Positions 2,503 to 51,211 of a stretch of 64,000 bases of DNA are shown one piece after another. The notes beneath the pieces are model-generated. The model did no database searches. It had not been told where the DNA came from and was given only the letters and a program-made list of their open reading frames with translations. A program made the position numbers and the translations under genes. Every line of letters starts with the position of its first letter. Within the stretch, counting starts at the first letter, position 1. The DNA lies in the NCBI RefSeq assembly GCF_058153355.1, contig NZ_CM177019.1, one strand, 5' to 3'.

Positions 2503-3008
2503 ATGGTTGAGGATATTTTGGCTCCAGGGTTACGGGTTGTGTTTTGCGGTATCAATCCTGGTCTTTCATCCGCCGGAACTGGTTTTCCCTTTGCTCATCC
2601 GGCAAATCGCTTCTGGAAGGTGATATATCAGGCTGGGTTTACCGACCGTCAGTTGAAGCCGCAGGAGGCACAGCATCTGCTGGATTATCGTTGTGGTGTC
2701 ACCAAACTGGTAGACCGTCCAACGGTGCAAGCCAATGAAGTTTCAAAGCAGGAGCTGCACGCAGGCGGGCGTAAGCTGATTGAAAAATTGAGGATTATCA
2801 ACCACAAGCGTTGGCGATCCTCGGCAAACAGGCTTATGAGCAGGGCTTTAGCCAGCGCGGCACGCACTGGGGGAAACAAACGCTCACTATTGGTTCGACG
2901 CAGATTTGGGTACTGCCAAATCCCAGCGGTTTAAGTCGCGTTTCACTGGAGAAACTGGTTGAGGCGTATCGGGAACTGGACCAGGCGTTGGTAGTGCGTG
3001 GGCGATAA
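2503..3008 (+). pseudogene. mug: G/U mismatch-specific DNA glycosylase gene carrying a -1 frameshift in an A5 run (2783-2787)
   Basis: The frame from 2503 reads ...GRKLIEK then runs into unrelated sequence to 2934. The +2 frame from 2784 reads [22 protein letters not shown]...ALVVRGR to the stop at 3008. The two halves join only if one A is added to the homopolymer. Confidence 0.8.
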
Positions 3009-3015
3009 AAAACGC

Positions 3016-3028
3016 CACCGAAAAGGTG
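3016..3028. repeat. 13-bp target-site duplication, left copy (CACCGAAAAGGTG)
   Basis: Identical 13-mer directly flanks both ends of the IS element. Confidence 0.85.
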
Positions 3029-4454
3029 TAATGCCGATCAGTTAAGGATCAGTTGACCGATCCAGTGGCTGTGTAAGAATCCGGAAACGCTCACTTGTTT
3101 CCGGATTTTTTTATGCACATTGGACAGGCTCTTGATCTGGTATCCCGTTACGATTCTCTGCGTAACCCACTGACTTCTCTGGGGGATTACCTCGACCCCG
3201 AACTCATCTCTCGTTGCCTTGCCGAATCAGGTACTGTAACGCTACGCAAGCGCCGTCTTCCCCTCGAAATGATGGTCTGGTGTATTGTTGGCATGGCGCT
3301 TGAGCGTAAAGAACCTCTTCACCAGATTGTGAATCGCCTGGACATCATGCTGCCGGGCAATCGCCCCTTCGTTGCCCCCAGTGCCGTTATTCAGGCCCGC
3401 CAGCGCCTGGGAAGTGAGGCTGTCCGCCGCGTGTTCACGAAAACAGCGCAGCTCTGGCATAACGCCACGCCGCATCCGCACTGGTGCGGCCTGACCCTGC
3501 TGGCCATCGATGGTGTGTTCTGGCGCACACCGGATACACCAGAGAACGATGCAGCCTTCCCCCGCCAGACACATGCCGGGAACCCGGCGCTCTACCCGCA
3601 GGTCAAAATGGTCTGCCAGATGGAACTGACCAGCCATCTGCTGACGGCTGCAGCCTTCGGCACGATGAAGAACAGCGAAAATGAGCTTGCTGAGCAACTT
3701 ATAGAACAAACCGGCGATAACACTCTGACGTTAATGGATAAAGGTTATTACTCACTGGGACTGTTAAATGCCTGGAGCCTGGCGGGAGAACACCGCCACT
3801 GGATGATACCTCTCAGAAAGGGAGCGCAATATGAAGAGATCAGAAAACTGGGTAAAGGCGATCATCTGGTGAAGCTGAAAACCAGCCCGCAGGCACGAAA
3901 AAAGTGGCCGGGACTGGGAAATGAAGTGACAGCCCGCCTGCTGACCGTGACGCGCAAAGGAAAAGTCTGCCATCTGCTGACGTCGATGACGGACGCCATG
4001 CGCTTCCCCGGAGGAGAAATGGCGGATCTGTACAGTCATCGCTGGGAAATCGAACTGGGATACAGGGAGATAAAACAGACGATGCAACTGAGCAGGCTGA
4101 CGCTGAGAAGTAAAAAGCCGGAGCTTGTGGAGCAAGAGCTGTGGGGTGTCTTACTGGCTTATAATCTGGTGAGATATCAGATGATTAAAATGGCGGAACA
4201 TCTGAAAGGTTACTGGCCGAATCAACTGAGTTTCTCAGAATCATGCGGAATGGTGATGAGAATGCTGATGACATTGCAGGGCGCTTCACCGGGACGTATA
4301 CCGGAGCTGATGCGCGATCTTGCAAGTATGGGACAACTTGTGAAATTACCGACAAGAAGGGAAAGGGCCTTCCCGAGAGTGGTAAAGGAGAGGCCCTGGA
4401 AATACCCCACAGCCCCGAAAAAGAGCCAGTCAGTTGCTTAACTGACTGGCATTA
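3029..4454 (+). mobile_element. IS4 insertion sequence, 1426 bp, complete
   Basis: 18-bp imperfect terminal inverted repeats TAATGCCGATCAGTTAAG (3029-3046) and CTTAACTGACTGGCATTA (4437-4454); single transposase ORF; 13-bp direct repeats at both ends; length matches IS4. Confidence 0.9.
3113..4441 (+). CDS. insG: IS4 transposase (DDE family)
   Basis: ORF 3095-4441; start at [16 protein letters not shown] gives 442 aa. Recognised as the IS4 transposase. Confidence 0.85.
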
Positions 4455-4467
4455 CACCGAAAAGGTG
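4455..4467. repeat. 13-bp target-site duplication, right copy (CACCGAAAAGGTG)
   Basis: Identical to 3016-3028. Confidence 0.85.
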
Positions 4468-4525
4468 GCGTTTGTGCAAAGGGAAAAGTGCCGGATGTGG
4501 CGTAACGCCTGATCCGGCCTACCGA

Positions 4526-6367
4526 TTAATCGTCCAGGAAGCTACGCAGCACTTCAGAACGGCTCGGGTGACGCAGTTTACGCAGCGCCTTCGCTTCGAT
4601 CTGACGGATACGTTCGCGGGTAACGTCGAACTGTTTACCCACTTCTTCCAGCGTGTGGTCGGTGTTCATGTCGATACCGAAACGCATACGCAGAACTTTC
4701 GCTTCACGCGCGGTCAGGCCAGCCAGCACGTCGTGCGTTGCCGCACGCAGGCTTTCAGTGGTCGCAGAATCCAGCGGCAGCTCGAGGGTGGTATCCTCGA
4801 TGAAATCCCCCAGATGCGAATCTTCATCATCACCGATCGGCGTTTCCATGGAGATTGGCTCTTTGGCGATTTTCAGCACTTTGCGGATCTTGTCTTCCGG
4901 CATCAGCATACGTTCAGCCAGTTCTTCCGGCGTCGGCTCGCGGCCCATCTCTTGCAGCATCTGGCGAGAAATACGGTTGAGCTTGTTGATAGTCTCAATC
5001 ATATGCACCGGAATACGGATGGTGCGCGCCTGATCCGCGATAGAACGGGTGATAGCCTGACGAATCCACCAGGTTGCGTAGGTGGAGAATTTGTAACCAC
5101 GGCGATATTCGAACTTATCTACCGCTTTCATCAGGCCGATGTTACCTTCCTGAATCAGGTCAAGGAACTGCAAGCCACGGTTGGTGTATTTCTTGGCGAT
5201 AGAAATAACCAGACGTAAGTTCGCTTCAACCATCTCTTTCTTCGCACGGCGGGCTTTCGCTTCACCGATGGACATACGACGGTTGATATCTTTAACCTGC
5301 TCGATGGTCAGGCCGGTTTCTTCTTCAATCTGCTGCAGTTTCTGCAGGGCGCGATGCACTTCTTCAGAGACATCGTGCAGTTTTTCCGACCACGGCTTGT
5401 TCATCGCAATTGCCGCGTTGAACCAGGTATCGCTGGTTTCGTTGCCGGTAAACAGGGTAATGAAGTTTTTCTTCGGCATTTTGCACTGCTCAACGCAGAG
5501 CTTCATGATCAGACGTTCTTGCGTACGAACGCGGTCCATCATGACGCGCATGCTGTTGACCAGGTAGTCAAACTGCTTCGGCACCAGGCGGAACTGTTTG
5601 AATACTTCAGACAGTTTCAGGATCTCTTCCTGAGCGGCAGCGTGACTGCGACCTTTCGCTTTGATGGTGTCACGCGTTACAACGTACTGAGCGCGCAGTT
5701 CCGCAAATTTTTCGCGAGCCAGTTCCGGGTCGATGCTGTTGTCATCATCGGCGCTATCGTCATCGCCATCTTCTTCGTCTTCATCTTCGTCATCGTCCAG
5801 ATCTTCCTGGGAAAGCTCAGAACCGACGTGAGTGGCGGTAGGTGCCAGATCTTCTTCTGCGTTCGGGTCAACAAAGCCGGTGATCAGATCGGACAGACGC
5901 GCTTCTTCTGCTTCAACACGATCGTACTGTTCCAGCAGATAGGTGATCGCTTCCGGATATTCAGCAACGGAGCATTGAACCTGGTTGATCCCGTCTTCAA
6001 TACGCTTAGCGATGTCAATTTCGCCTTCGCGGGTCAACAGTTCAACGGTGCCCATTTCACGCATGTACATGCGTACCGGGTCAGTCGTGCGCCCGATTTC
6101 AGATTCCACGCTGGAAAGCACCTGCGCGGCGGCTTCGGCAGCATCTTCGTCCGCGGTGTTTTCAGCCAGCATCAGATCATCGGCATCCGGTGCTTCTTCC
6201 ATCACCTGAATGCCCATGTCGTTGATCATTTGGATGATGTCTTCGATCTGATCTGAATCGACGATATCTTCCGGCAGATGGTCATTGACCTCGGCATAGG
6301 TCAGATAGCCTTGCTCCTTACCACGGGTGACAAGAAGTTTCAGCTGTGACTGCGGGTTTTGCTCCAT
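4526..6367 (-). CDS. rpoD: RNA polymerase sigma-70 (primary sigma factor)
   Basis: 613 aa; acidic region 1.1; regions 2-4; C-terminal ...[14 protein letters not shown]. Confidence 0.97.
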
Positions 6368-23994: not shown

Positions 23995-24412
23995 CCGGAA
24001 AGCGGTTCACAGATCTCGCTTCGAACCAGGCAGGCCTATTGACGCTGTTGTTTTTTCAACCTAAAGTAAAGGAACAAGGGTAAGGGAGGATTTCTCCCCC
24101 CTCTGAATTGGTTGTTAGTAAGTCGGGAAACTTAACAGTAACAACACAATCAGTATGATGACGAACTTCATCATAACCCTTTCCTTATACAAGGCCCCTT
24201 CCTCGGGAGGGGCTTTCCCGTTTCAGCCCCTTGCTGACTCCCCGATTGTTGATGAGCGCCAGACCCCGCGCAATGCTTTCTCTTATGCAGTTTTCTCTTC
24301 CCCGAGTCGGCTCGCAAAACGCTGTAACAACCTGATCATTTGTACTTTTTAGCGGAACACAGATATAAAAAATCCCCGACTTTTTGGGCCAGGGATGTTC
24401 ATGGTTGAAAAT

Positions 24413-27227: not shown

Positions 27228-27234
27228 TGGTGCT

Positions 27235-27534
27235 TTATTCTGCTTTATCAACCGGCGGGATAGCCGGAGGAGATTGAAGTTCTGCTACCGGATTATTGCG
27301 CGCTTCCAGTTCGCTGATGCGTTGTTCCAGTAACGCCAGTTTTTCACGAGTCCGTAACAGGACTTGCGTCTGAACGTCGAATTCTTCGCGGCTTACCAGA
27401 TCGAGACGCGTCAACTGCGCTTGTAGGGTTTGGCGGATTTTTTTCTCCACATCTTCCCCGAACTCCCTGATTCCTTTAGGCATTGATTCGTGAACCTGGC
27501 GAGCGATTTGCTCAATTTTTTTCGGGTCAATCAT
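27235..27534 (-). CDS. ubiK: Ubiquinone biosynthesis accessory factor UbiK (BMFP family)
   Basis: About 99 aa from [55 protein letters not shown]... Confidence 0.85.
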
Positions 27535-36975: not shown

Positions 36976-38871
<1,896 letters not shown>

Positions 38872-38900
38872 TAATCCTCCCGCCAGAAGAATAAAACATA

Positions 38901-38932
38901 GCCCGGTATACAAGTGTATACCGGGCTTTTTT
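38901..38932 (+). terminator. Rho-independent terminator of parE, at the left boundary of the accessory island
   Basis: GCCCGGTATAC-AAG-TGTATACCGGGC hairpin followed by TTTTTT; the stop codon of the convergent receptor gene lies 3 nt beyond the T-tract. Confidence 0.8.
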
Positions 38933-38934
38933 GA

Positions 38935-41076
38935 TCAAAATTCCATTTTCACCGTGAATTGCACTTCACGAGGATCGCCAATCTGGTTGCCCAGATTATT
39001 TGTGGCGATGGAAGAGGTGTAATACGTTTTATCAAACAGGTTTTTGACGTTTAATTGCAGTGTGACCGGATACTGCAATTTCATTTTGTATGCGGCGAAG
39101 GCATCGGCAACAAAATAGCCTGGCAGATAATAGTCAGCCCCATTGGTTGCCGAACGACGGCTTACACCATGTCCACCACCGCCAAACGTCAGTGTGTTAT
39201 TGCCTGGCATGTTATGAATATCATAGGTCAGGAATAGCGAACCGGTATGACGAGGAACATTCGGCAATGGTTTCCCTGCATAATCAGGATCCTCCAGAAC
39301 CTTAGCATCGGTATAGCCGTAGCTGGCAATGATATTAATGTTTTCAGTTAATGCTCCCGCAAGGTCGACTTCTACCCCTCTTGAACGAACACGGCCTGCC
39401 GTTTTGGCAATGGTTTCATCACCAACACTTTCGGTATACAACACATTACGTTTATGGATATCAAACAGCGCAATATCTGCGGTGATACCATCGAATAGCT
39501 CGAATTTTGCCCCGACTTCGTAAGCATTAGATGATTCTGGTGGCAGATCGCCAATGTAGCTGGCAATTGACGATTGCGGCATAAATGTTTGCGAATAATT
39601 GGCAAATAAGGATACCGATGGCGTCAGTTTGTAGACCAATCCCAGTTTGGGAGTCCATTGTTCATCGCGGCTGTCAGTATTGACATTAAAAGGACGGCCT
39701 TTACCCGCATACTGCGTGTAATACTGATAGCGGAGCCCGGCGACGGCAATCCAGTTATCGGTCAGATAGAGTGCGTCCTGTGCATACGCTGAGTAGCTCT
39801 CCTGTTTGATCGTCTGATCACTGTCCGACGCCGAAACCGTTGTGCATTTGCTGGTAATACCATAAACGGGGTTGTAGATATTGAAATCTTTAGCTTTTTT
39901 ACAGCGAATCATATCTGTGCGCAGAAGATCATAATATTCATATGACACCCCACCCAGAATCTCATTATAGAATCCAGCAACATCAACATTCCCTTGCAGA
40001 TCCGCACGAGTAGCATGCATACGCTGGGTAGATCCTTGAGTTGCATCAACACGCCGTGTCAGCGTTCCTGTCGTTGCATCATACGCGGTAACGCGAGCTT
40101 GATTATCGCTGTATTTATCCTGGCTGTAGCTGTAATCAAAGCGCGCTGTCCACTGGCTATTGAGATGATATTCTGCGTTGAGTTGCGCCAGATCGGACTG
40201 ACCATCTGTAATATTAAACGGTTCGTCAAAACGTATTTTTCGATCAACGTTTACGGGCTGTTTCGTCGTAAGGTCGAAAATCGTTCCACGATCGAACGGC
40301 GTTTTATAATCCCGATGAGAATAGAGCATGGTTACTGTTGCATTATCACCAAACCAGGTGAGTGATGGAGCAATAAATGTACTGCGCTCTTTACCGAAGT
40401 TTCGCCAGTAATCTTCATCTTGCACTTCCCCAATAAGGCGATACGCCAGCTGAGTGCCTTCAATGGGACCTGTGATATCCAATTGCCCAGTGCCTCCGCC
40501 AAAACTGGAGGAAGTGGCTGAGACAGTACCATGGAATGTTTTTTCCGGGCGCTTTGTCACGACGTTAATCAGTCCGCCAGGATCGAGAATGCCATACAGC
40601 GTGGAGGCCGGACCTTTTAGCACTTCCACACGCTCTGTGGCGGCGTTGAAACTGCGAGGAAGTACAGTTCGCAGGCCGTTGGTCATGATGGAGCCATCCC
40701 GGTTAGCACCAAACCCACGACGTACAAAAGCATCCTGAGTCCCGCCTAATGTATTGGTCTGTACCACGTTACTGACGTTATAAAGTGCCTCATCCAGCGT
40801 CGTCGCATTCTGATTTTCCAGAACTTGATCGCTAACCGTATTGACCACCTGCGGGATATCCAGCATCGGCATATCGGTTAATGTCGCCGTGGAGGTGCTC
40901 AGAGGTTGATAACCATCGGTCGCCTCAGTTGCGGTATTTGCATCCGCTGTAACAGTGATTGTTTCGCCATCTTTGGTCGTTACAGTGTCGGTTGCATGAA
41001 TCATCGGTGCTGCAAAGAGCAGTGAAAAGAGCGCTCGACCTTTGAGTCCTGAGAATGAAGGTGTGAACATAGCCAT
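38935..41076 (-). CDS. TonB-dependent outer-membrane receptor, siderophore type
   Basis: 713 aa; N-terminal signal peptide, TonB-box-like ETITVTA, plug-domain motifs, beta-barrel with C-terminal aromatic residue (...VKMEF). Confidence 0.85.
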   Translation of the reverse strand: MAMFTPSFSGLKGRALFSLLFAAPMIHATDTVTTKDGETITVTADANTATEATDGYQPLSTSTATLTDMPMLDIPQVVNTVSDQVLENQNATTLDEALYNVSNVVQTNTLGGTQDAFVRRGFGANRDGSIMTNGLRTVLPRSFNAATERVEVLKGPASTLYGILDPGGLINVVTKRPEKTFHGTVSATSSSFGGGTGQLDITGPIEGTQLAYRLIGEVQDEDYWRNFGKERSTFIAPSLTWFGDNATVTMLYSHRDYKTPFDRGTIFDLTTKQPVNVDRKIRFDEPFNITDGQSDLAQLNAEYHLNSQWTARFDYSYSQDKYSDNQARVTAYDATTGTLTRRVDATQGSTQRMHATRADLQGNVDVAGFYNEILGGVSYEYYDLLRTDMIRCKKAKDFNIYNPVYGITSKCTTVSASDSDQTIKQESYSAYAQDALYLTDNWIAVAGLRYQYYTQYAGKGRPFNVNTDSRDEQWTPKLGLVYKLTPSVSLFANYSQTFMPQSSIASYIGDLPPESSNAYEVGAKFELFDGITADIALFDIHKRNVLYTESVGDETIAKTAGRVRSRGVEVDLAGALTENINIIASYGYTDAKVLEDPDYAGKPLPNVPRHTGSLFLTYDIHNMPGNNTLTFGGGGHGVSRRSATNGADYYLPGYFVADAFAAYKMKLQYPVTLQLNVKNLFDKTYYTSSIATNNLGNQIGDPREVQFTVKMEF

Positions 41077-41176
41077 TTAGTCTGTTATCCCAAAAACTCG
41101 CGGATTGTCGCGAGTGAAAATTGTTTCTTATTGCTCACTAAGCACTATCCGTTTGTTATTTCGCCATCGGATATGT

Positions 41177-41195
41177 AATTGAGAATCATTCAATC
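41177..41195. promoter_or_regulatory. Candidate Fur box in the divergent control region of the island
   Basis: AATTGAGAATCATTCAATC; the core TGAGAATCATTCA matches the Fur consensus TGATAATCATTAT at 11 of 13 positions. Lies in a 373-bp AT-rich region between the receptor gene and the ABC operon. Confidence 0.45.
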
Positions 41196-41449
41196 ACGCG
41201 GTAATGTAGTAGTAAATGAGAAATAACAAAAAATTGCTACATGTGTTTTTATGAAAGGTTTATACAATTTAATTGTTTTTAATTTATTGATATTTAATGT
41301 TTTTATTTGTATGTGCAAAAATATTTTACCTGTTATTTACCTTGTTTTTGTGTGGCTTTTAACTGCTTGACTACTACATTTTGTGGCGTCAAACTCTCAA
41401 AGGAGAATGAGTTTTATTTTTGTTTGTCTTTGATTAAGTTGGCGTACAC

Positions 41450-42259
41450 GTGGCACATAACGCAAAAGGGCAGGGGCTGATCCTCGACAATGTTTCTGCC
41501 GGGTATCACAAGAAAATCATTGTTGATGGTGTTTCTTTCTCCGTTCCCACAGAAAAAATGACCGTTCTGGTTGGGGCAAACGGCTGTGGAAAGTCGACGC
41601 TGCTCAGCACCATTGCTCGTATCTTGCAACCCATGGGCGGTTCGATATTGCTTGATGGCAACGCGATTCACGAGCAACCAACGAAAGCGTTATCCCGTAG
41701 ACTTGGGATCTTGCCGCAGTCGCCATTATTGCCGGAGGGCTTAACCGTTTATGAACTGGTGTCGCGTGGGCGTTTTCCCTGGCAGAATTTCATTCGTCAA
41801 TGGAGCGATGCCGATGAGCTGGCGGTAGAAGAGGCCCTGAAATTAACGGGTACGCAGGAGTTTGCACATTTACCTGTTGAAAAACTCTCTGGTGGGCAGC
41901 GCCAGCGTTGCTGGATTGCGATGGTGTTGGCGCAAAAGACGCCTTATATCCTGCTGGATGAACCCACAACATGGCTTGATTTACGTTATCAGGTTGAAAT
42001 TCTTGAGTTATTACATGATTTAACGCGTCATCACGGGCGTACAGTCGTCGTGGTGTTGCATGATCTGAATTTTGCCGTCAATTATGGCGATACGTTGATA
42101 TTTTTACGCCAGGGGAAAGTGGTGCGTGTGTTGAATGAGGGGGAGCATTGCACGCCTGAGCTGGTAAAAGCGGTCTTTGACGTTGATGTTCACGCATCAA
42201 TAAATCCTCTGACGGGAAAGCCGTTCTTCATGCCGTTTCGTGGTGTAGAAAAAGTATGA
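41450..42259 (+). CDS. ABC transporter ATP-binding protein, FepC/FhuC/FecE-like
   Basis: 269 aa; Walker A GANGCGKST, signature LSGGQRQR, Walker B ILLDEPT, H-loop; apparent GTG start. Confidence 0.85.
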   Translation: MAHNAKGQGLILDNVSAGYHKKIIVDGVSFSVPTEKMTVLVGANGCGKSTLLSTIARILQPMGGSILLDGNAIHEQPTKALSRRLGILPQSPLLPEGLTVYELVSRGRFPWQNFIRQWSDADELAVEEALKLTGTQEFAHLPVEKLSGGQRQRCWIAMVLAQKTPYILLDEPTTWLDLRYQVEILELLHDLTRHHGRTVVVVLHDLNFAVNYGDTLIFLRQGKVVRVLNEGEHCTPELVKAVFDVDVHASINPLTGKPFFMPFRGVEKV

Positions 42260-43239
42260 TGCGCACAGGGCTGGTTACTGTAATTTTCCTCGCCTTACTG
42301 CTGGTGGGATGCGTGGTATATCCAGGGATTGGTGCCCGATTTATTGCACCACAAACGGTGTTGCAGGCATTTCTTCATTTTGATCCGCAAAACTTCGATC
42401 ACAACGTAATTGTAAGACTCCGTTTGCCGCGTTTAGCGGCAGCATTGCTTACCGGTGCTTCTCTTGGTGTTGCTGGTGCTTTGTTGCAGGCTGTCATTCG
42501 TAACCCATTGGGGGAGCCACATATTTTAGGCTTAAATGCCGGAGCCGCTCTTGCTGTCGTTGCCGCCAGTGCGCTTGGACTGGCCTTTCCGATTGGACGC
42601 CCACTGCTGGCATCTACGGGGGGCGCGTTATTGTTCCTGTTGATATTGCTGCTTTCCTCCGCAGGGCGTTCAGGGTTAACGCCAATGAAAGTTACTTTAT
42701 GCGGCGTGGCGCTATCGGCGTTCGTGTCCTCAATAACGGCTGCAATCCTGATTCTTGACGAACAAACACTGCTGGCGATGCGGACATGGCTAGCAGGTGA
42801 TTTAGCGGGGCAGGATTGGGCGACGCTGGGTACGTCCGCCTGGTTTTCTCTGGGGGGATTTGTGTTAGCCCTTTACCTTGCACCCTCCCTTAACATGTTG
42901 GCACTGGGCGATCGCATGGCGCAGGGGCTGGGCGTCTCTGTATTCCGCACGCGAACATTCACCCTGCTTGCGATCGCGTTGCTCTGTGGCGCAGCCGTAT
43001 CGATTGCTGGCCCCATTGGTTTTGTCGGCCTGCTAGTACCGCAGATTGTCCGGCGTCTGGTATCAGCGGATCTGTGCGTTCTGCTCCCTCTTTCAGCTTG
43101 TGTCGGCGCACTTTTGTTATTACTGGCAGATATTATTGCCCGTACGCTTTTCACGCCCCATGAGTTAGCGACCGGTGTCATGACGGCGTTAGTTGGTGCG
43201 CCTGTTTTTGTCATTATGGCGACGAGGATGTTCAAATGA
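42256..43239 (+). CDS. ABC transporter permease, FecCD family (iron-siderophore/B12 type)
   Basis: 327-aa polytopic membrane protein; start overlaps the ATPase stop (ATGA). Confidence 0.85.
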   Translation: MMRTGLVTVIFLALLLVGCVVYPGIGARFIAPQTVLQAFLHFDPQNFDHNVIVRLRLPRLAAALLTGASLGVAGALLQAVIRNPLGEPHILGLNAGAALAVVAASALGLAFPIGRPLLASTGGALLFLLILLLSSAGRSGLTPMKVTLCGVALSAFVSSITAAILILDEQTLLAMRTWLAGDLAGQDWATLGTSAWFSLGGFVLALYLAPSLNMLALGDRMAQGLGVSVFRTRTFTLLAIALLCGAAVSIAGPIGFVGLLVPQIVRRLVSADLCVLLPLSACVGALLLLLADIIARTLFTPHELATGVMTALVGAPVFVIMATRMFK

Positions 43240-44285
43240 GTCGGATAATGAACGTCGGGCTACGCCCACTACGTGTTGGTAAGTTTTCGACACTGGTACG
43301 CCCTAAAAATCTGCTGTTGCTTGGTGGGCTGTTCCTGCTTGCGGTTGGAATACTGATATTCGGTCTGATGCAGGGTTCTTTCTCTGTTCCGGCATCGGAA
43401 GTAGGACGAGCGTTGTTTGCTCCAGAAAACGTAAGCACAGACGCACGTTATATTGTGCAGGATATTCGCTTGCCGAGAGTCATCATGGCATTGCTATGCG
43501 GGGCCATGTTAGGTATGGCAGGGGCCGCAATGCAATCCATTGCACGTAACGGCCTTGCCGATCCTGGTTTAATCGGCGTCAAAGAAGGATGTAGCGTGGC
43601 TGTGCTGTGGCTGATTTTCCAGTTTCCAATGCTGGGAATGTTCTGGCGTCCAGTGGCTGGTCTTGCTGGCGGCCTGTTGGTGGCTTTAATCGTGATTTTT
43701 TGTGCGCGCGATATTTCCCGCCCGCGATTTGTTCTGATTGGTATTGGTGTTTCCTGGTTTTTCGCCGCCGGTATCGGTGTATTTATGACCACTGCAGATG
43801 TTCGAGATGTACAAACTGCATTGATGTGGTTATCGGGAAGCCTGCATGCAGCTAACTGGATGTTAGTCGGTATTTCAGCCTGTTGGATGTTGCCAGCCGC
43901 TCTTTTATTGCTGTTCACCGCCAGGAAGGCGGATATCGCTCTGCTTGGTCATCAGGTGGCAACCGGGTTAGGCGTGAATAGTTCTCGCCTGGCGTTGTTA
44001 CGTGTCGCCGCACCCATAATCCTGACAGCCGTCTGCGTTTCGTGTGTTGGTAACATAGGTTTTGTCGGATTGATAGCACCCCATATATCACGTTTTATTC
44101 TACGTGGCGGGCAGACGACATTACTGCTGGGGAGCGCGGTATCGGGGGCGTTGTTAGTTATTCTGGCGGATAGCATTGGTCGTTTGGCTTTTTTGCCTTT
44201 GCAACTGCCTGCCGGAATCATTATCTCACTGATTGGTGGACCATTTTTTTTGCTACTGCTCTGGCAGCGCAGGAACAGTTTTTAA
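43236..44285 (+). CDS. ABC transporter permease, FecCD family, second subunit
   Basis: 349-aa polytopic membrane protein; start overlaps the upstream stop (ATGA). Confidence 0.85.
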   Translation: MSRIMNVGLRPLRVGKFSTLVRPKNLLLLGGLFLLAVGILIFGLMQGSFSVPASEVGRALFAPENVSTDARYIVQDIRLPRVIMALLCGAMLGMAGAAMQSIARNGLADPGLIGVKEGCSVAVLWLIFQFPMLGMFWRPVAGLAGGLLVALIVIFCARDISRPRFVLIGIGVSWFFAAGIGVFMTTADVRDVQTALMWLSGSLHAANWMLVGISACWMLPAALLLLFTARKADIALLGHQVATGLGVNSSRLALLRVAAPIILTAVCVSCVGNIGFVGLIAPHISRFILRGGQTTLLLGSAVSGALLVILADSIGRLAFLPLQLPAGIIISLIGGPFFLLLLWQRRNSF

Positions 44286-44295
44286 CGGGAGTTAT

Positions 44296-45243
44296 ATGCG
44301 TTTATTTTTTTCTCTGCTGATACTGTTGTCATTTTTTTCCCGTGCAACAGAACCTGTTCAGGTATTTACTGATGATTTAGGGCGCAAAGTCACTGTTCCT
44401 GCTCATCCAAAGAGAATTGTCTCTTTACACGATCTTGATATCACTATTCCTCTGATTGAGCTCGGTGTACCTCCTGTCGCCAGCCACGGGCGAACTCGGC
44501 CTGACGGTAGCCATTTCATTCGATCTGGCGCGTTATTGACAGGTGTCGACTTTGATAATTCATCGATCGCCTTTATTGGTACCGCTGATATTGATATTGA
44601 AGCGATTGTGGCGGCAAAGCCTGACCTGATCATCACAGAACCGACCCGTAATACGCCCATTGAACAACTTGAAAAAATTGCGCCCACGGTGAGCATTGAT
44701 CATCTCAAAGGGGGCGCGCCAGAAATCTATCGCAAGCTGGCAGAACTTACAGGAACGCAGTCGCAGCTGGCGATACTTGAACGCCGCTATCAGGCACAAA
44801 TCAATGCGCTGAAGGCGACGCTGGACAGCCAAAAAATAACGGTATCGGTGATTCAGGCAAACCAGGGAAAAATTAATGTGATGCATAGCTATCATTCGCT
44901 GGGGCGGGTATTACGCGATGCTGGTTTTCGTTTTCCGCCGCTGATTGAGAGCATTCCTGAAGGTGGGCGAATGGATGTGAGCGCGGAGCGTTTACCTGAA
45001 CTGGATGCCGATTTTGTTTTTGCAACCTGGCGCGGTGACACCGGTGGTAAACCTCAGGATGAGCTGGCAGCAATGGAAAAAGTCATGCCGGGATGGTGTC
45101 AGTTTCTGACTGCCTGTCGTTCCGGGCGTTATGTGCTGATTTCTCGTGAAGAGGCAATTTCTAACTCCTTTGCATCTCTGGGGCTGATGGCTGCGCAGAT
45201 ACAATCACAAATTGCAGGGCGACCTCTACCGGAGGCTAAATGA
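44296..45243 (+). CDS. Periplasmic substrate-binding protein, class III (siderophore/heme/B12-type)
   Basis: 315 aa from MRLFFSLLILLSFFSRATEP (signal peptide); typical size and architecture; GGGA ribosome-binding site upstream of the ATG at 44296. Confidence 0.8.
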   Translation: MRLFFSLLILLSFFSRATEPVQVFTDDLGRKVTVPAHPKRIVSLHDLDITIPLIELGVPPVASHGRTRPDGSHFIRSGALLTGVDFDNSSIAFIGTADIDIEAIVAAKPDLIITEPTRNTPIEQLEKIAPTVSIDHLKGGAPEIYRKLAELTGTQSQLAILERRYQAQINALKATLDSQKITVSVIQANQGKINVMHSYHSLGRVLRDAGFRFPPLIESIPEGGRMDVSAERLPELDADFVFATWRGDTGGKPQDELAAMEKVMPGWCQFLTACRSGRYVLISREEAISNSFASLGLMAAQIQSQIAGRPLPEAK

Positions 45244-46127
45244 TCCAGAAAGATAAAGCGCGGGTTGATATTTTTGGTGAGCGTTTTCGCACTCGCGCGA
45301 GTCAGTTAACGCCTGGGTTAAGAGCTGTCGCCAGCTACATTAATGAGCATCGTGAAGTGGTACTCGAGCAAACGGCGATGGAAATTGCGGCCACGTTGAA
45401 CACTTCCGATGCCACAGTTATCAGGGCTATACAGGCCCTGGGGTTTGCCGGGCTGCGTGATCTGAAACGCACTCTGGAACAGTGGCTTGGTCCAGCCCTT
45501 AGTTCCAGCGAAAAGATGTCTACGACGGTGAGTAACTTGACGAGCGATGTTAACACCGCAATCGACTTTGTTCTTGAAGGGCATTTGTATACCTGTAATG
45601 TCCTGTCAGAGCCTGAAAACCGCCACGCGCTTGCGCAAGCTGTAGCGTTGTTGGTGCAGGCACGGCAAGTCGCAATTTTTGGCATTGGCGCTTCGGGTAT
45701 TCTGGCGGACTATACCGCACGACTATTCAACCGCATAGGTTTGCCTGCCACGGCACTAAACCGTACGGGTATTGGCCTTGCCGAGCAACTGATCGCGCTT
45801 CAACGTGGCGATGTTCTGATCATGATGGCGCAAAAATCTGCGCACCGGGAAGGGGTGACGACGCTTCGTGAGGCGAGGCGGCTGGGGATCCCTGTTATTT
45901 TGCTGACAAACGCGCTGGATTCACGTTTTAGCAAAGACGCCAGTATCGTGATTCATGTTCCGCGCGGGGATGAAAAAGGGAAAACGCCGCTACATGGTAC
46001 GGTATTGTTGTGTCTGGAAATGATTGTCTGGTCGGTAGCTTCCGCAGTGCCGCAGCGTGCGGTTAAAACCATTAAGCGAATTAACGATTTCCATCGAGGA
46101 CTGAAAACGGGAAGAAAGAATGGCTAA
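45240..46127 (+). CDS. RpiR-family transcriptional regulator (N-terminal HTH_6 + C-terminal SIS sugar-phosphate-binding domain)
   Basis: 295 aa; HTH region (...QTAMEIAATLNTSDATVIRAIQALGFAGLRDLK) followed by a SIS-like fold (VAIFGIGASGILADYTARLFNRIG...); start overlaps the stop of the binding-protein gene. Confidence 0.75.
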   Translation: MIQKDKARVDIFGERFRTRASQLTPGLRAVASYINEHREVVLEQTAMEIAATLNTSDATVIRAIQALGFAGLRDLKRTLEQWLGPALSSSEKMSTTVSNLTSDVNTAIDFVLEGHLYTCNVLSEPENRHALAQAVALLVQARQVAIFGIGASGILADYTARLFNRIGLPATALNRTGIGLAEQLIALQRGDVLIMMAQKSAHREGVTTLREARRLGIPVILLTNALDSRFSKDASIVIHVPRGDEKGKTPLHGTVLLCLEMIVWSVASAVPQRAVKTIKRINDFHRGLKTGRKNG

Positions 46128-46171
46128 TCTGGGCTGAGACCGGTAGCAGCACCGGCCTCTTTTCAGGAATG

Positions 46172-50874: not shown

Positions 50875-51211
50875 TGAAGAATCTTTACCGGAGTGTGAGC
50901 CAAATCACTCGCTATCAGTTTAAGTTAACGATGCCACAGGCGTATTGTTGTCCGCTCAGACTCTGACGGCACAGGATTTTGTCCTTCCACACAGAAACCG
51001 CCATTGGCGGTTTTCCGCTGCATAATCCGCAGGATTATGTCTACAGCAAAGAGTTGTATATCAAGGCACATTGATGCCTTTATCGCCGTCGGAGCACGTC
51101 CGGCGGCGCTATTCACGCTGATCTCCTGTGACTCGACGCGGCAGATAATGTAGTATCTCCGGCAATATTGCCCCTTTGAAGGCTGGCGAATAAGTTGAGG
51201 AATCAGAATTA

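Follow-up and report, generated by a model that had tools for sequence, protein, structure and literature searches.

In the window (the whole stretch of DNA that was analysed, 64,000 nucleotides), a complete copy of the insertion sequence IS4 lies between mug, which encodes the G/U mismatch DNA glycosylase, and rpoD (Table 1). The reading frame of mug is interrupted by a 1-bp deletion at approximately position 2782, where the window has A5 and both K-12 and the two closest complete genomes (99.0–99.1% identical) have A6; mug is intact in these two genomes. The frameshift is absent from an earlier annotation made from the sequence alone (hereafter, the first-pass annotation). Alignment of 34 kb with one of the closest genomes showed no other indel in coding sequence, and the deletion reflects either true pseudogenisation of mug or an error in sequencing the homopolymer. 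With mug frameshifted, the termination of its transcripts is therefore of little functional weight in the window genome.

Table 1. Positions of the features described in the text, in window coordinates.
Feature	Position	Strand	Basis or remark
mug (G/U mismatch DNA glycosylase), frameshifted	2503–3008	+	translation split over two frames
Split terminator, left arm	3007–3015	.	A6 (3007–3012) and lower stem CGC
Target site duplication, left 13-bp copy	3016–3028	.	CACCGAAAAGGTG; terminator upper stem and loop
IS4, complete	3029–4454	+	1426 bp; 3 nt off K-12 IS4
IRL, left 18-bp inverted repeat	3029–3046	.	end comparison
Promoter-like site, candidate transposase promoter	3053–3080	+	TTGACC, 16-nt spacer, TG-AAGAAT
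Inward-facing left hairpin and T-run	3078–3112	+	AATCCGGAAAC/GTTTCCGGATT; folding, hairpin/tail score
IS4 transposase ORF, DDE domain	3113–4441	+	442 aa; translation, Pfam, NCBIfam
Inward-facing right hairpin (part of IRR) and tail	4415–4450	-	GCCAGTCAGTT/AACTGACTGGC + UCUUUUUC; scanner, folding
IRR, right 18-bp inverted repeat	4437–4454	.	end comparison
Target site duplication, right 13-bp copy	4455–4467	.	CACCGAAAAGGTG
Split terminator, right arm	4468–4476	.	lower stem GCG and TTTGTG
REP-like palindrome, rpoD 3′ untranslated region	4490–4518	.	upstream of terminator in RNA sense
rpoD	4526–6367	-	convergent with mug
TonB-dependent siderophore receptor	38935–41076	-	in 7.3-kb block
FecE/FecC/FecD-like ABC transporter and binding protein	41450–45243	+	in 7.3-kb block
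RpiR-family regulator	45240–46127		in 7.3-kb block

The first-pass annotation had described the element as a 1426-bp IS4 with 18-bp imperfect inverted repeats and a DDE transposase, and had named alignment to an IS4 reference as a check. This description was borne out in full: aligned with the annotated IS4 of K-12 MG1655 (insG, NC_000913.3, 4502090–4503515), the window copy is identical at 1423 of 1426 nucleotides over its full length, and its 18-bp ends (TAATGCCGATCAGTTAAG and, in reverse complement, TAATGCCAGTCAGTTAAG) are identical at 16 of 18 positions. The transposase contains the Pfam domains Nterm_IS4 (E = 7.6e-33) and DDE_Tnp_1 (E = 1.1e-31), scores 304.5 bits against the NCBIfam model transpos_IS4_1 (IS4 family transposase; cut-off 115), and carries, in a 15-residue stretch of its translation, the Y(2)R(3)E(6)K motif that is the hallmark of the IS4 family (PMC2266710). 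The features of IS4 membership were thus found together, namely near-identity over 1426 bp, a single DDE open reading frame, the motif, short inverted repeats and a 13-bp duplication. At the protein level, the three nucleotide differences from the K-12 copy amount to two substitutions, G304A and R326L. In a comparison of 12 IS4 copies, the window copy forms the hub from which the other variants each differ by private changes; A304 and L326 are the majority state, and the K-12 type carries three private changes. The window element is an intact, near-consensus IS4. The K-12 copy resembles it in length, ends and its 442-aa transposase but occupies another site, an AAA-N20-TTT sequence that forms no hairpin and has been duplicated over 12 bp, whereas the window copy sits in a hairpin with a 13-bp duplication. 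Three GATC (Dam) sites are clustered at the left end of the window copy, at positions 3036, 3047 and 3059, in and beside IRL and the −35 element of the promoter-like site; by analogy, this clustering suggests methylation-dependent control, which is known for IS10 and IS50.

Target duplications of IS4 are 11–13 bp long, about one helical turn. The 13-mer CACCGAAAAGGTG that abuts both ends of the window copy occurs once in K-12, where mug and rpoD are convergent and a 78-bp spacer that includes the 13-mer separates their stop codons (spacer sequence AAAAAACGCCACCGAAAAGGTGGCGTTTGTG; ...GATAAAAAACGCCACCGAAAAGGTGGCGTTTGTGCA...). The first-pass annotation had joined the two flanks to reconstruct the uninterrupted junction and had pointed to that of other E. 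coli for comparison; the K-12 spacer equals the reconstruction exactly. When the junction sequence without IS4 and without one of the two repeat copies served as the query, 5286 of 5426 complete E. coli genomes gave a match covering 80% or more of it, and approximately 64 of the 5426 genomes had neither the empty site at this coverage nor IS4 at the junction. Since the probability of a perfect 13-mer at fixed positions is approximately 4^-13, its chance occurrence at both exact ends of the element is excluded. The perfect 13-bp repeat is, as had been claimed, a true target duplication.

The restored site reads AAAAAA-CGCCACC-GAAAA-GGTGGCG-TTTGTG, a G+C-rich stem-loop of 8–10 pairs with a 5-nt loop between an A-tract and a T-tract. 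A search of the literature for the rpoD/mug terminator found nothing usable, and a consensus terminator scanner called neither the native terminator in K-12 nor the hairpin at the left end of IS4, because it extends stems greedily and draws the T-run of the tail into pairing with the A-run. Terminators were therefore assessed by folding and by a hairpin/tail score of the d'Aubenton-Carafa type, whose values serve relative comparison only. The restored hairpin has a folding energy of −16.5 kcal/mol on the rpoD strand, where U6 comes after it, and of about −16.6 kcal/mol (centroid structure) on the mug strand, where its tail is only UUUGUG. The hairpin/tail score is approximately 21–28 in the rpoD direction versus approximately 2 in the mug direction, and the native site is accordingly predicted to terminate rpoD transcripts strongly and mug transcripts only marginally. 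The A6 tract that overlaps the mug stop codon formerly served as the template for the U-tract of rpoD transcripts. The convergent hairpin that the first-pass annotation had rebuilt from the flanks is therefore that of K-12, and its account of what the insertion leaves behind also holds: a 4-bp stem on each side (CACC/GGTG, −3.3 and −4.2 kcal/mol) without a U-tract, that of rpoD being displaced by 1.4 kb. From their folding energies, these CACC-loop-GGTG remnants are not expected to act as terminators.

Mayaux and colleagues reportedly described, in 1984, an IS4 insertion in the pheST attenuator, which like the mug/rpoD site is a terminator hairpin, and are said to have proposed AAA-N20-TTT as the target consensus. 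The window site fits this consensus as AAA-ACGCCACCGAAAAGGTGGCG-TTT. One remark in a 2008 review concerns the conserved arms of the IS4 target. Four further IS4 sites were fetched by extending the flanks of BLAST matches, a biased sample chosen by flank similarity to the query: ldcC/accA (left arm AAAAAAGGG, duplication CCACCGAAGTG, right arm ACCCTTTTT), rraA/zapB (AAAAAAGG, CACCGCAAGGTG, CCTTTTTT), yebQ/htpX (AAAAAAAGCG, CGTCGATCAGGAC, GCGCTTTTT) and tdk/adhE (AAAAAAACGG, CCCCAGAAGGGG, CCGTTT). All four have the order A-run, GC stem, loop, stem and T-run, with the 11–13-bp duplication at the apex; the neighbouring genes are convergent at rraA/zapB, yebQ/htpX and tdk/adhE and annotated on the same strand at ldcC/accA.

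Because these four sites had been selected by similarity, an unselected sample was assembled by searching for the exact 30-nt right end of IS4 in one genome per species, which yielded 67 hits, spread over more than 25 species of Enterobacterales; 60 unique right flanks of at least 40 nt were retained, and random positions in the same loci served as the control. A run of four or more T residues at positions 10–30 was present in 47 of the 60 flanks, compared with 9.2% of the control, and a T-run combined with a self-complementary (palindromic) top in 38, compared with 2.5%. T occupied positions 17–20 in 42–52 of the flanks, and C occurred at position 1 of the duplication in 47 and at position 4 in 42. 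The T-run was missing from 13 flanks, and both the native IS4 site of K-12 and one plasmid site are weak or non-palindromic. The K-12 site, where AAA and TTT lie approximately 20 bp apart, fits AAA-N20-TTT without a hairpin, and for this reason the A and T arms may matter more for targeting than the stem, as far as these sequences indicate.

The recurrence of a palindrome, where no fixed sequence recurs, raises the alternative that recognition by IS4 depends on a DNA structure (a single-strand hairpin or an extruded cruciform) and not on the sequence of duplex arms. Positions 2 and 3 of the duplication vary yet stay complementary (CACC..GGTG, CCCC..GGGG, CCGC..GCGG, CAGC..GCTG), as this alternative would have it; terminators are palindromic anyway, however, and recognition of A/T tracts with a GC-rich core would also yield palindromy. 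The alternative is further weakened by the non-hairpin K-12 site with its spaced AAA and TTT, by the preference for C at positions 1 and 4 of the duplication, which points to sequence preferences, and by the IS4-family relatives Tn5 and Tn10, which act on duplex DNA, so that structural recognition appears rather improbable.

A weight matrix derived from the 60 foreign flanks was applied symmetrically, with duplication lengths of 11–13, to the window from which IS4 had been removed. Over all positions of this 62.6-kb sequence, the mug/rpoD hairpin ranked first, scoring 20.2 in its best register and 19.8 in the true register (n = 13), followed by the next best site at 18.2.

Several hits in the one-genome-per-species search stand apart from the pattern. 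In three Pectobacterium species (L057, L060, L081), the right end of IS4 abuts one common non-terminator flank, TTCAGAAAATGATTTTCTTGCTAGAAAA, which has the look of an orthologous copy or remnant of some age and not of a recent transposition event. An identical right-end flank was found in assemblies labelled Citrobacter sp. 18056 (L076) and Chryseobacterium sp. 18061 (L078), which come from the same study, and a further hit lies on a 1403-nt contig of an Oscillospiraceae metagenome-assembled genome (L072) that, judging by its length, apparently contains little beyond IS4; these occurrences are likely due to cross-contamination or mis-binning.

IS4 was found at the mug/rpoD junction in 76 of the 5426 complete E. 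coli genomes, 37 with the element in the orientation of the window (counted with left- and right-junction queries) and 39 with it inverted (counted with a query in which IS4 was inverted), so that half of the carriers differ from the window in orientation. The inverted carriers include IAI39, CE10 and UMNF18, and ST95-32 is also among the 76. Eleven carrier loci were fetched, six in the window orientation and five inverted; each contains a 1426-bp IS4 at the same insertion point with the same 13-bp duplication as the window, and in each the annotation shows an IS4 family transposase flanked by the two genes. A scan for the exact left junction in one genome per species gave no match.

Comparison of these loci separates the history of the flanks from that of the element. 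The strains cq9 (+) and UMNF18 (−) have identical 1390-bp flanks and IS4 copies of opposite orientation that are 6 nt apart. Identical flanks are likewise shared by FDAARGOS_1249 (+), BR1220 (+) and PEC389 (−); PEC389 carries the IS4 variant of FDAARGOS_1249 in opposite orientation, and the variant of BR1220 differs from both copies by 11 nt. Conversely, BR1220 (+) and CUVET18-1475 (−) carry a common IS4 variant and differ in flanks and orientation, and the window flanks represent a different haplotype, with no fewer than 51 differences in 1390 positions from those of any carrier sampled. Since identical flanks are combined with different variants and orientations, the insertions have recurred, and the sequences point to many independent IS4 insertions at the same phosphodiester bonds. 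The mug/rpoD junction is a recurrent, orientation-independent hotspot for IS4, because terminator-like palindromes are its preferred target; this point is absent from the first-pass annotation.

A common site could instead reflect common descent, or the recombinational spread of one or two old insertions, with no hotspot at all. Clonal inheritance surely lies behind part of the 76 genomes, and some carriers agree fully in both their flanks and their IS4 copy, as with FDAARGOS_1249 and the K-12-type copies. As an account of the whole set, however, common descent is very improbable, given the near-equal counts of the two orientations, identical flanks with different variants and orientations, one variant in different flanks and opposite orientations (BR1220 and CUVET18-1475), the distance of the window flanks from all sampled carriers, and a matrix trained on other species that predicts this site as the best target. 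Unlike the window with its frameshifted gene, 10 of the 11 carriers sampled have an intact mug; in ST95-32, the annotated mug is 24 nt shorter. The IS4 copy of UMNF18 has an in-frame stop; some IS4 copies and their neighbours are decaying among the carriers (ST95-32 mug, UMNF18 IS4).

Both ends of IS4 contain an inward-facing hairpin. At the left end, 50–84 nt inside the element and between its terminus and the transposase start, AATCCGGAAAC-GCUCACUU-GUUUCCGGAUU (3078–3107) is followed by T7, which extends to 3112 and directly precedes the transposase ATG at 3113; this hairpin folds at about −15.5 to −18.8 kcal/mol and has a hairpin/tail score of 6.5–23.6. The predicted start of the transposase transcript would lie inside the left arm or the loop of the hairpin, so that the mRNA of IS4 itself would lack the hairpin and transcripts arriving from outside would contain it. 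In IS200, a left-end terminator is similarly missing from the element's own mRNA and present in outside transcripts (PMC4513863). By analogy with this bidirectional terminator, the same role is proposed for the IS4 hairpin at 3078–3112, although IS200 is an unrelated element with a HUH transposase, unlike IS4.

At the right end, within the first 40 nt of IS4 and approximately 30 nt past the former termination point of rpoD, GCCAGUCAGUU-AAGC-AACUGACUGGC (4450–4425) is followed by the interrupted U-rich tail UCUUUUUC. Its 11-bp stem with six G–C pairs folds at −17.5 to −18.7 kcal/mol and was called by the scanner, and its hairpin/tail score of approximately 1 is borderline, compared with 21–28 for the native terminator in the rpoD direction. 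A second, weaker terminator-like site on the rpoD strand is located at 4374–4359 (scanner and folding). In the window orientation, rpoD RNA meets the weaker of the two end hairpins and mug RNA the stronger; in the 39 inverted cases these roles are swapped.

The first-pass annotation had concluded that transcripts of rpoD probably read through into IS4 antisense to the transposase and those of mug in the sense direction. Its premise stands, as the native terminator is split. The conclusion for mug does not follow, however, with a strong hairpin and T7 placed ahead of the transposase ATG, and sense read-through from mug into the transposase is, on the folding results, unlikely. For rpoD, the claim is reduced: the IRR hairpin follows after approximately 30 nt with its borderline score, and some antisense read-through is possible but would not be the default expectation. 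In its full form, the reading that the split terminator is simply unreplaced, with rpoD transcripts running antisense through IS4 and mug transcripts entering the transposase gene, is unlikely. It is true that only stems of 4 bp, at −3 to −4 kcal/mol, are left of the native hairpin, that the rpoD U-tract is 1.4 kb away, and that the U-tract of the IRR hairpin is interrupted (UCUUUUUC) and its score borderline; against these points stand the T7-tailed hairpin on the side of mug, which is frameshifted in any case, the 11-bp hairpin of −18.7 kcal/mol with its U-rich tail and the additional site at 4374–4359 on the side of rpoD, and the 76 natural isolates with IS4 in both orientations, which argue against a serious defect in the expression of the essential rpoD gene. 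Given the counts of 37 and 39 and the spread of carriers across unrelated isolates, we argue that neither orientation is seriously harmful.

A palindrome that we take, from the general type of its sequence, to be a REP element is located between rpoD and the insertion. REP elements have an established role in protecting mRNA 3′ ends, and this one could still protect the 3′ end of rpoD mRNA, provided that transcripts running past the site undergo trimming. No outward-facing promoter-like site was found at either end of IS4, and the idea of IS4-driven antisense transcription of mug or rpoD was dropped on this ground. A search of the first 10 kb against Rfam detected only tRNA-Ile (ileX) and no described RNA family in or around IS4.

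The reading that best accounts for the observed element, duplication, empty site, recurrence and target pattern is, with a high degree of confidence, that the bidirectional mug/rpoD terminator, a target of the type that IS4 prefers, received an intact, near-consensus copy of the element, whose end hairpins may partly replace what it split. IS4 makes cuts staggered by 11–13 bp around the apex of a palindrome composed of an A-tract, G+C-rich stem, loop, stem and T-tract, so that the top of the hairpin, here 13 bp, is duplicated and its two arms are separated; the repeated landing of IS4 at this exact position in both orientations is explained by how well the mug/rpoD hairpin fits the target pattern. 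The insertion destroys the native terminator and brings in, at both ends, an inward-facing hairpin with a U-tract. The left hairpin probably stops incoming transcripts in the sense direction; those in the antisense direction are probably stopped, at least in some proportion, by the IRR-derived hairpin on the right. In the window, rpoD RNA would then end approximately 30 nt later than before, at the IRR hairpin, with some fraction reading on. We infer the terminator activity of the end hairpins and a near-neutral effect on rpoD.

A broader and more tentative proposal, which we regard as having slightly less than an even chance, is that IS4 is a dedicated terminator-seeking element with a safe-harbour strategy, which would recognise the architecture of A-tract, GC hairpin and T-tract across Enterobacterales, split the apex and supply inward-facing replacement terminators from both of its ends, and could thus be near-neutral in either orientation even beside essential genes. 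Intrinsic terminators also serve as homing sites for bacterial class C group II introns (PMC3522654). These are, however, unrelated retroelements whose insertion point lies beyond the terminator; IS4, by contrast, enters the apex of the hairpin and splits it.

The element itself is already known, 76 RefSeq genomes have the same insertion in their annotation, and the target specificity of IS4 has been noted before. The target consensus is long known as well; what may not yet have been spelled out is how this consensus relates to terminators, how often single sites are hit at the scale of populations, and that IS4 would supply terminators of its own. Because IS4 targets such terminators, the present case is an ordinary one: for annotation, an IS4 inside a terminator is a normal choice of target and no remarkable accident, and strains that have IS4 at the same junction should not be taken, on that account, to share a common descent. 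A transposon 70 nt from the essential rpoD gene can be found in many natural isolates; its target is non-coding, and its ends look able to restore termination. If confirmed, the end hairpins and the target rule could help to predict hotspots and to interpret variation in E. coli 3′ untranslated regions.

The window is 96–97% identical to K-12, and its best matches among the 5426 complete E. coli genomes reach 98.8–99.1% over 7–25 kb; judged by these identities, its lineage appears to have no close complete genome in this set. IS4 is the only insertion element seen on comparison of the 64 kb with K-12, and for this reason the possibility that the window comes from Shigella was rejected. A 7.3-kb block between parE and ygiN (38868–46171), which is absent from K-12, looks like an accessory iron-uptake island. 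The fimbrial operon ygiL-yqiGHI, which in K-12 contains IS2, is missing from the window, with approximately 75 bp at the junction (about 27229–27304), and the ygiS-mqsRA segment of K-12 is missing as well, with approximately 130 bp at its junction (about 50876–51004). At 24039–24396, the sib/ibs toxin-antitoxin repeats give overlapping alignments to sibD and sibE of K-12, and their copy number or arrangement differs.
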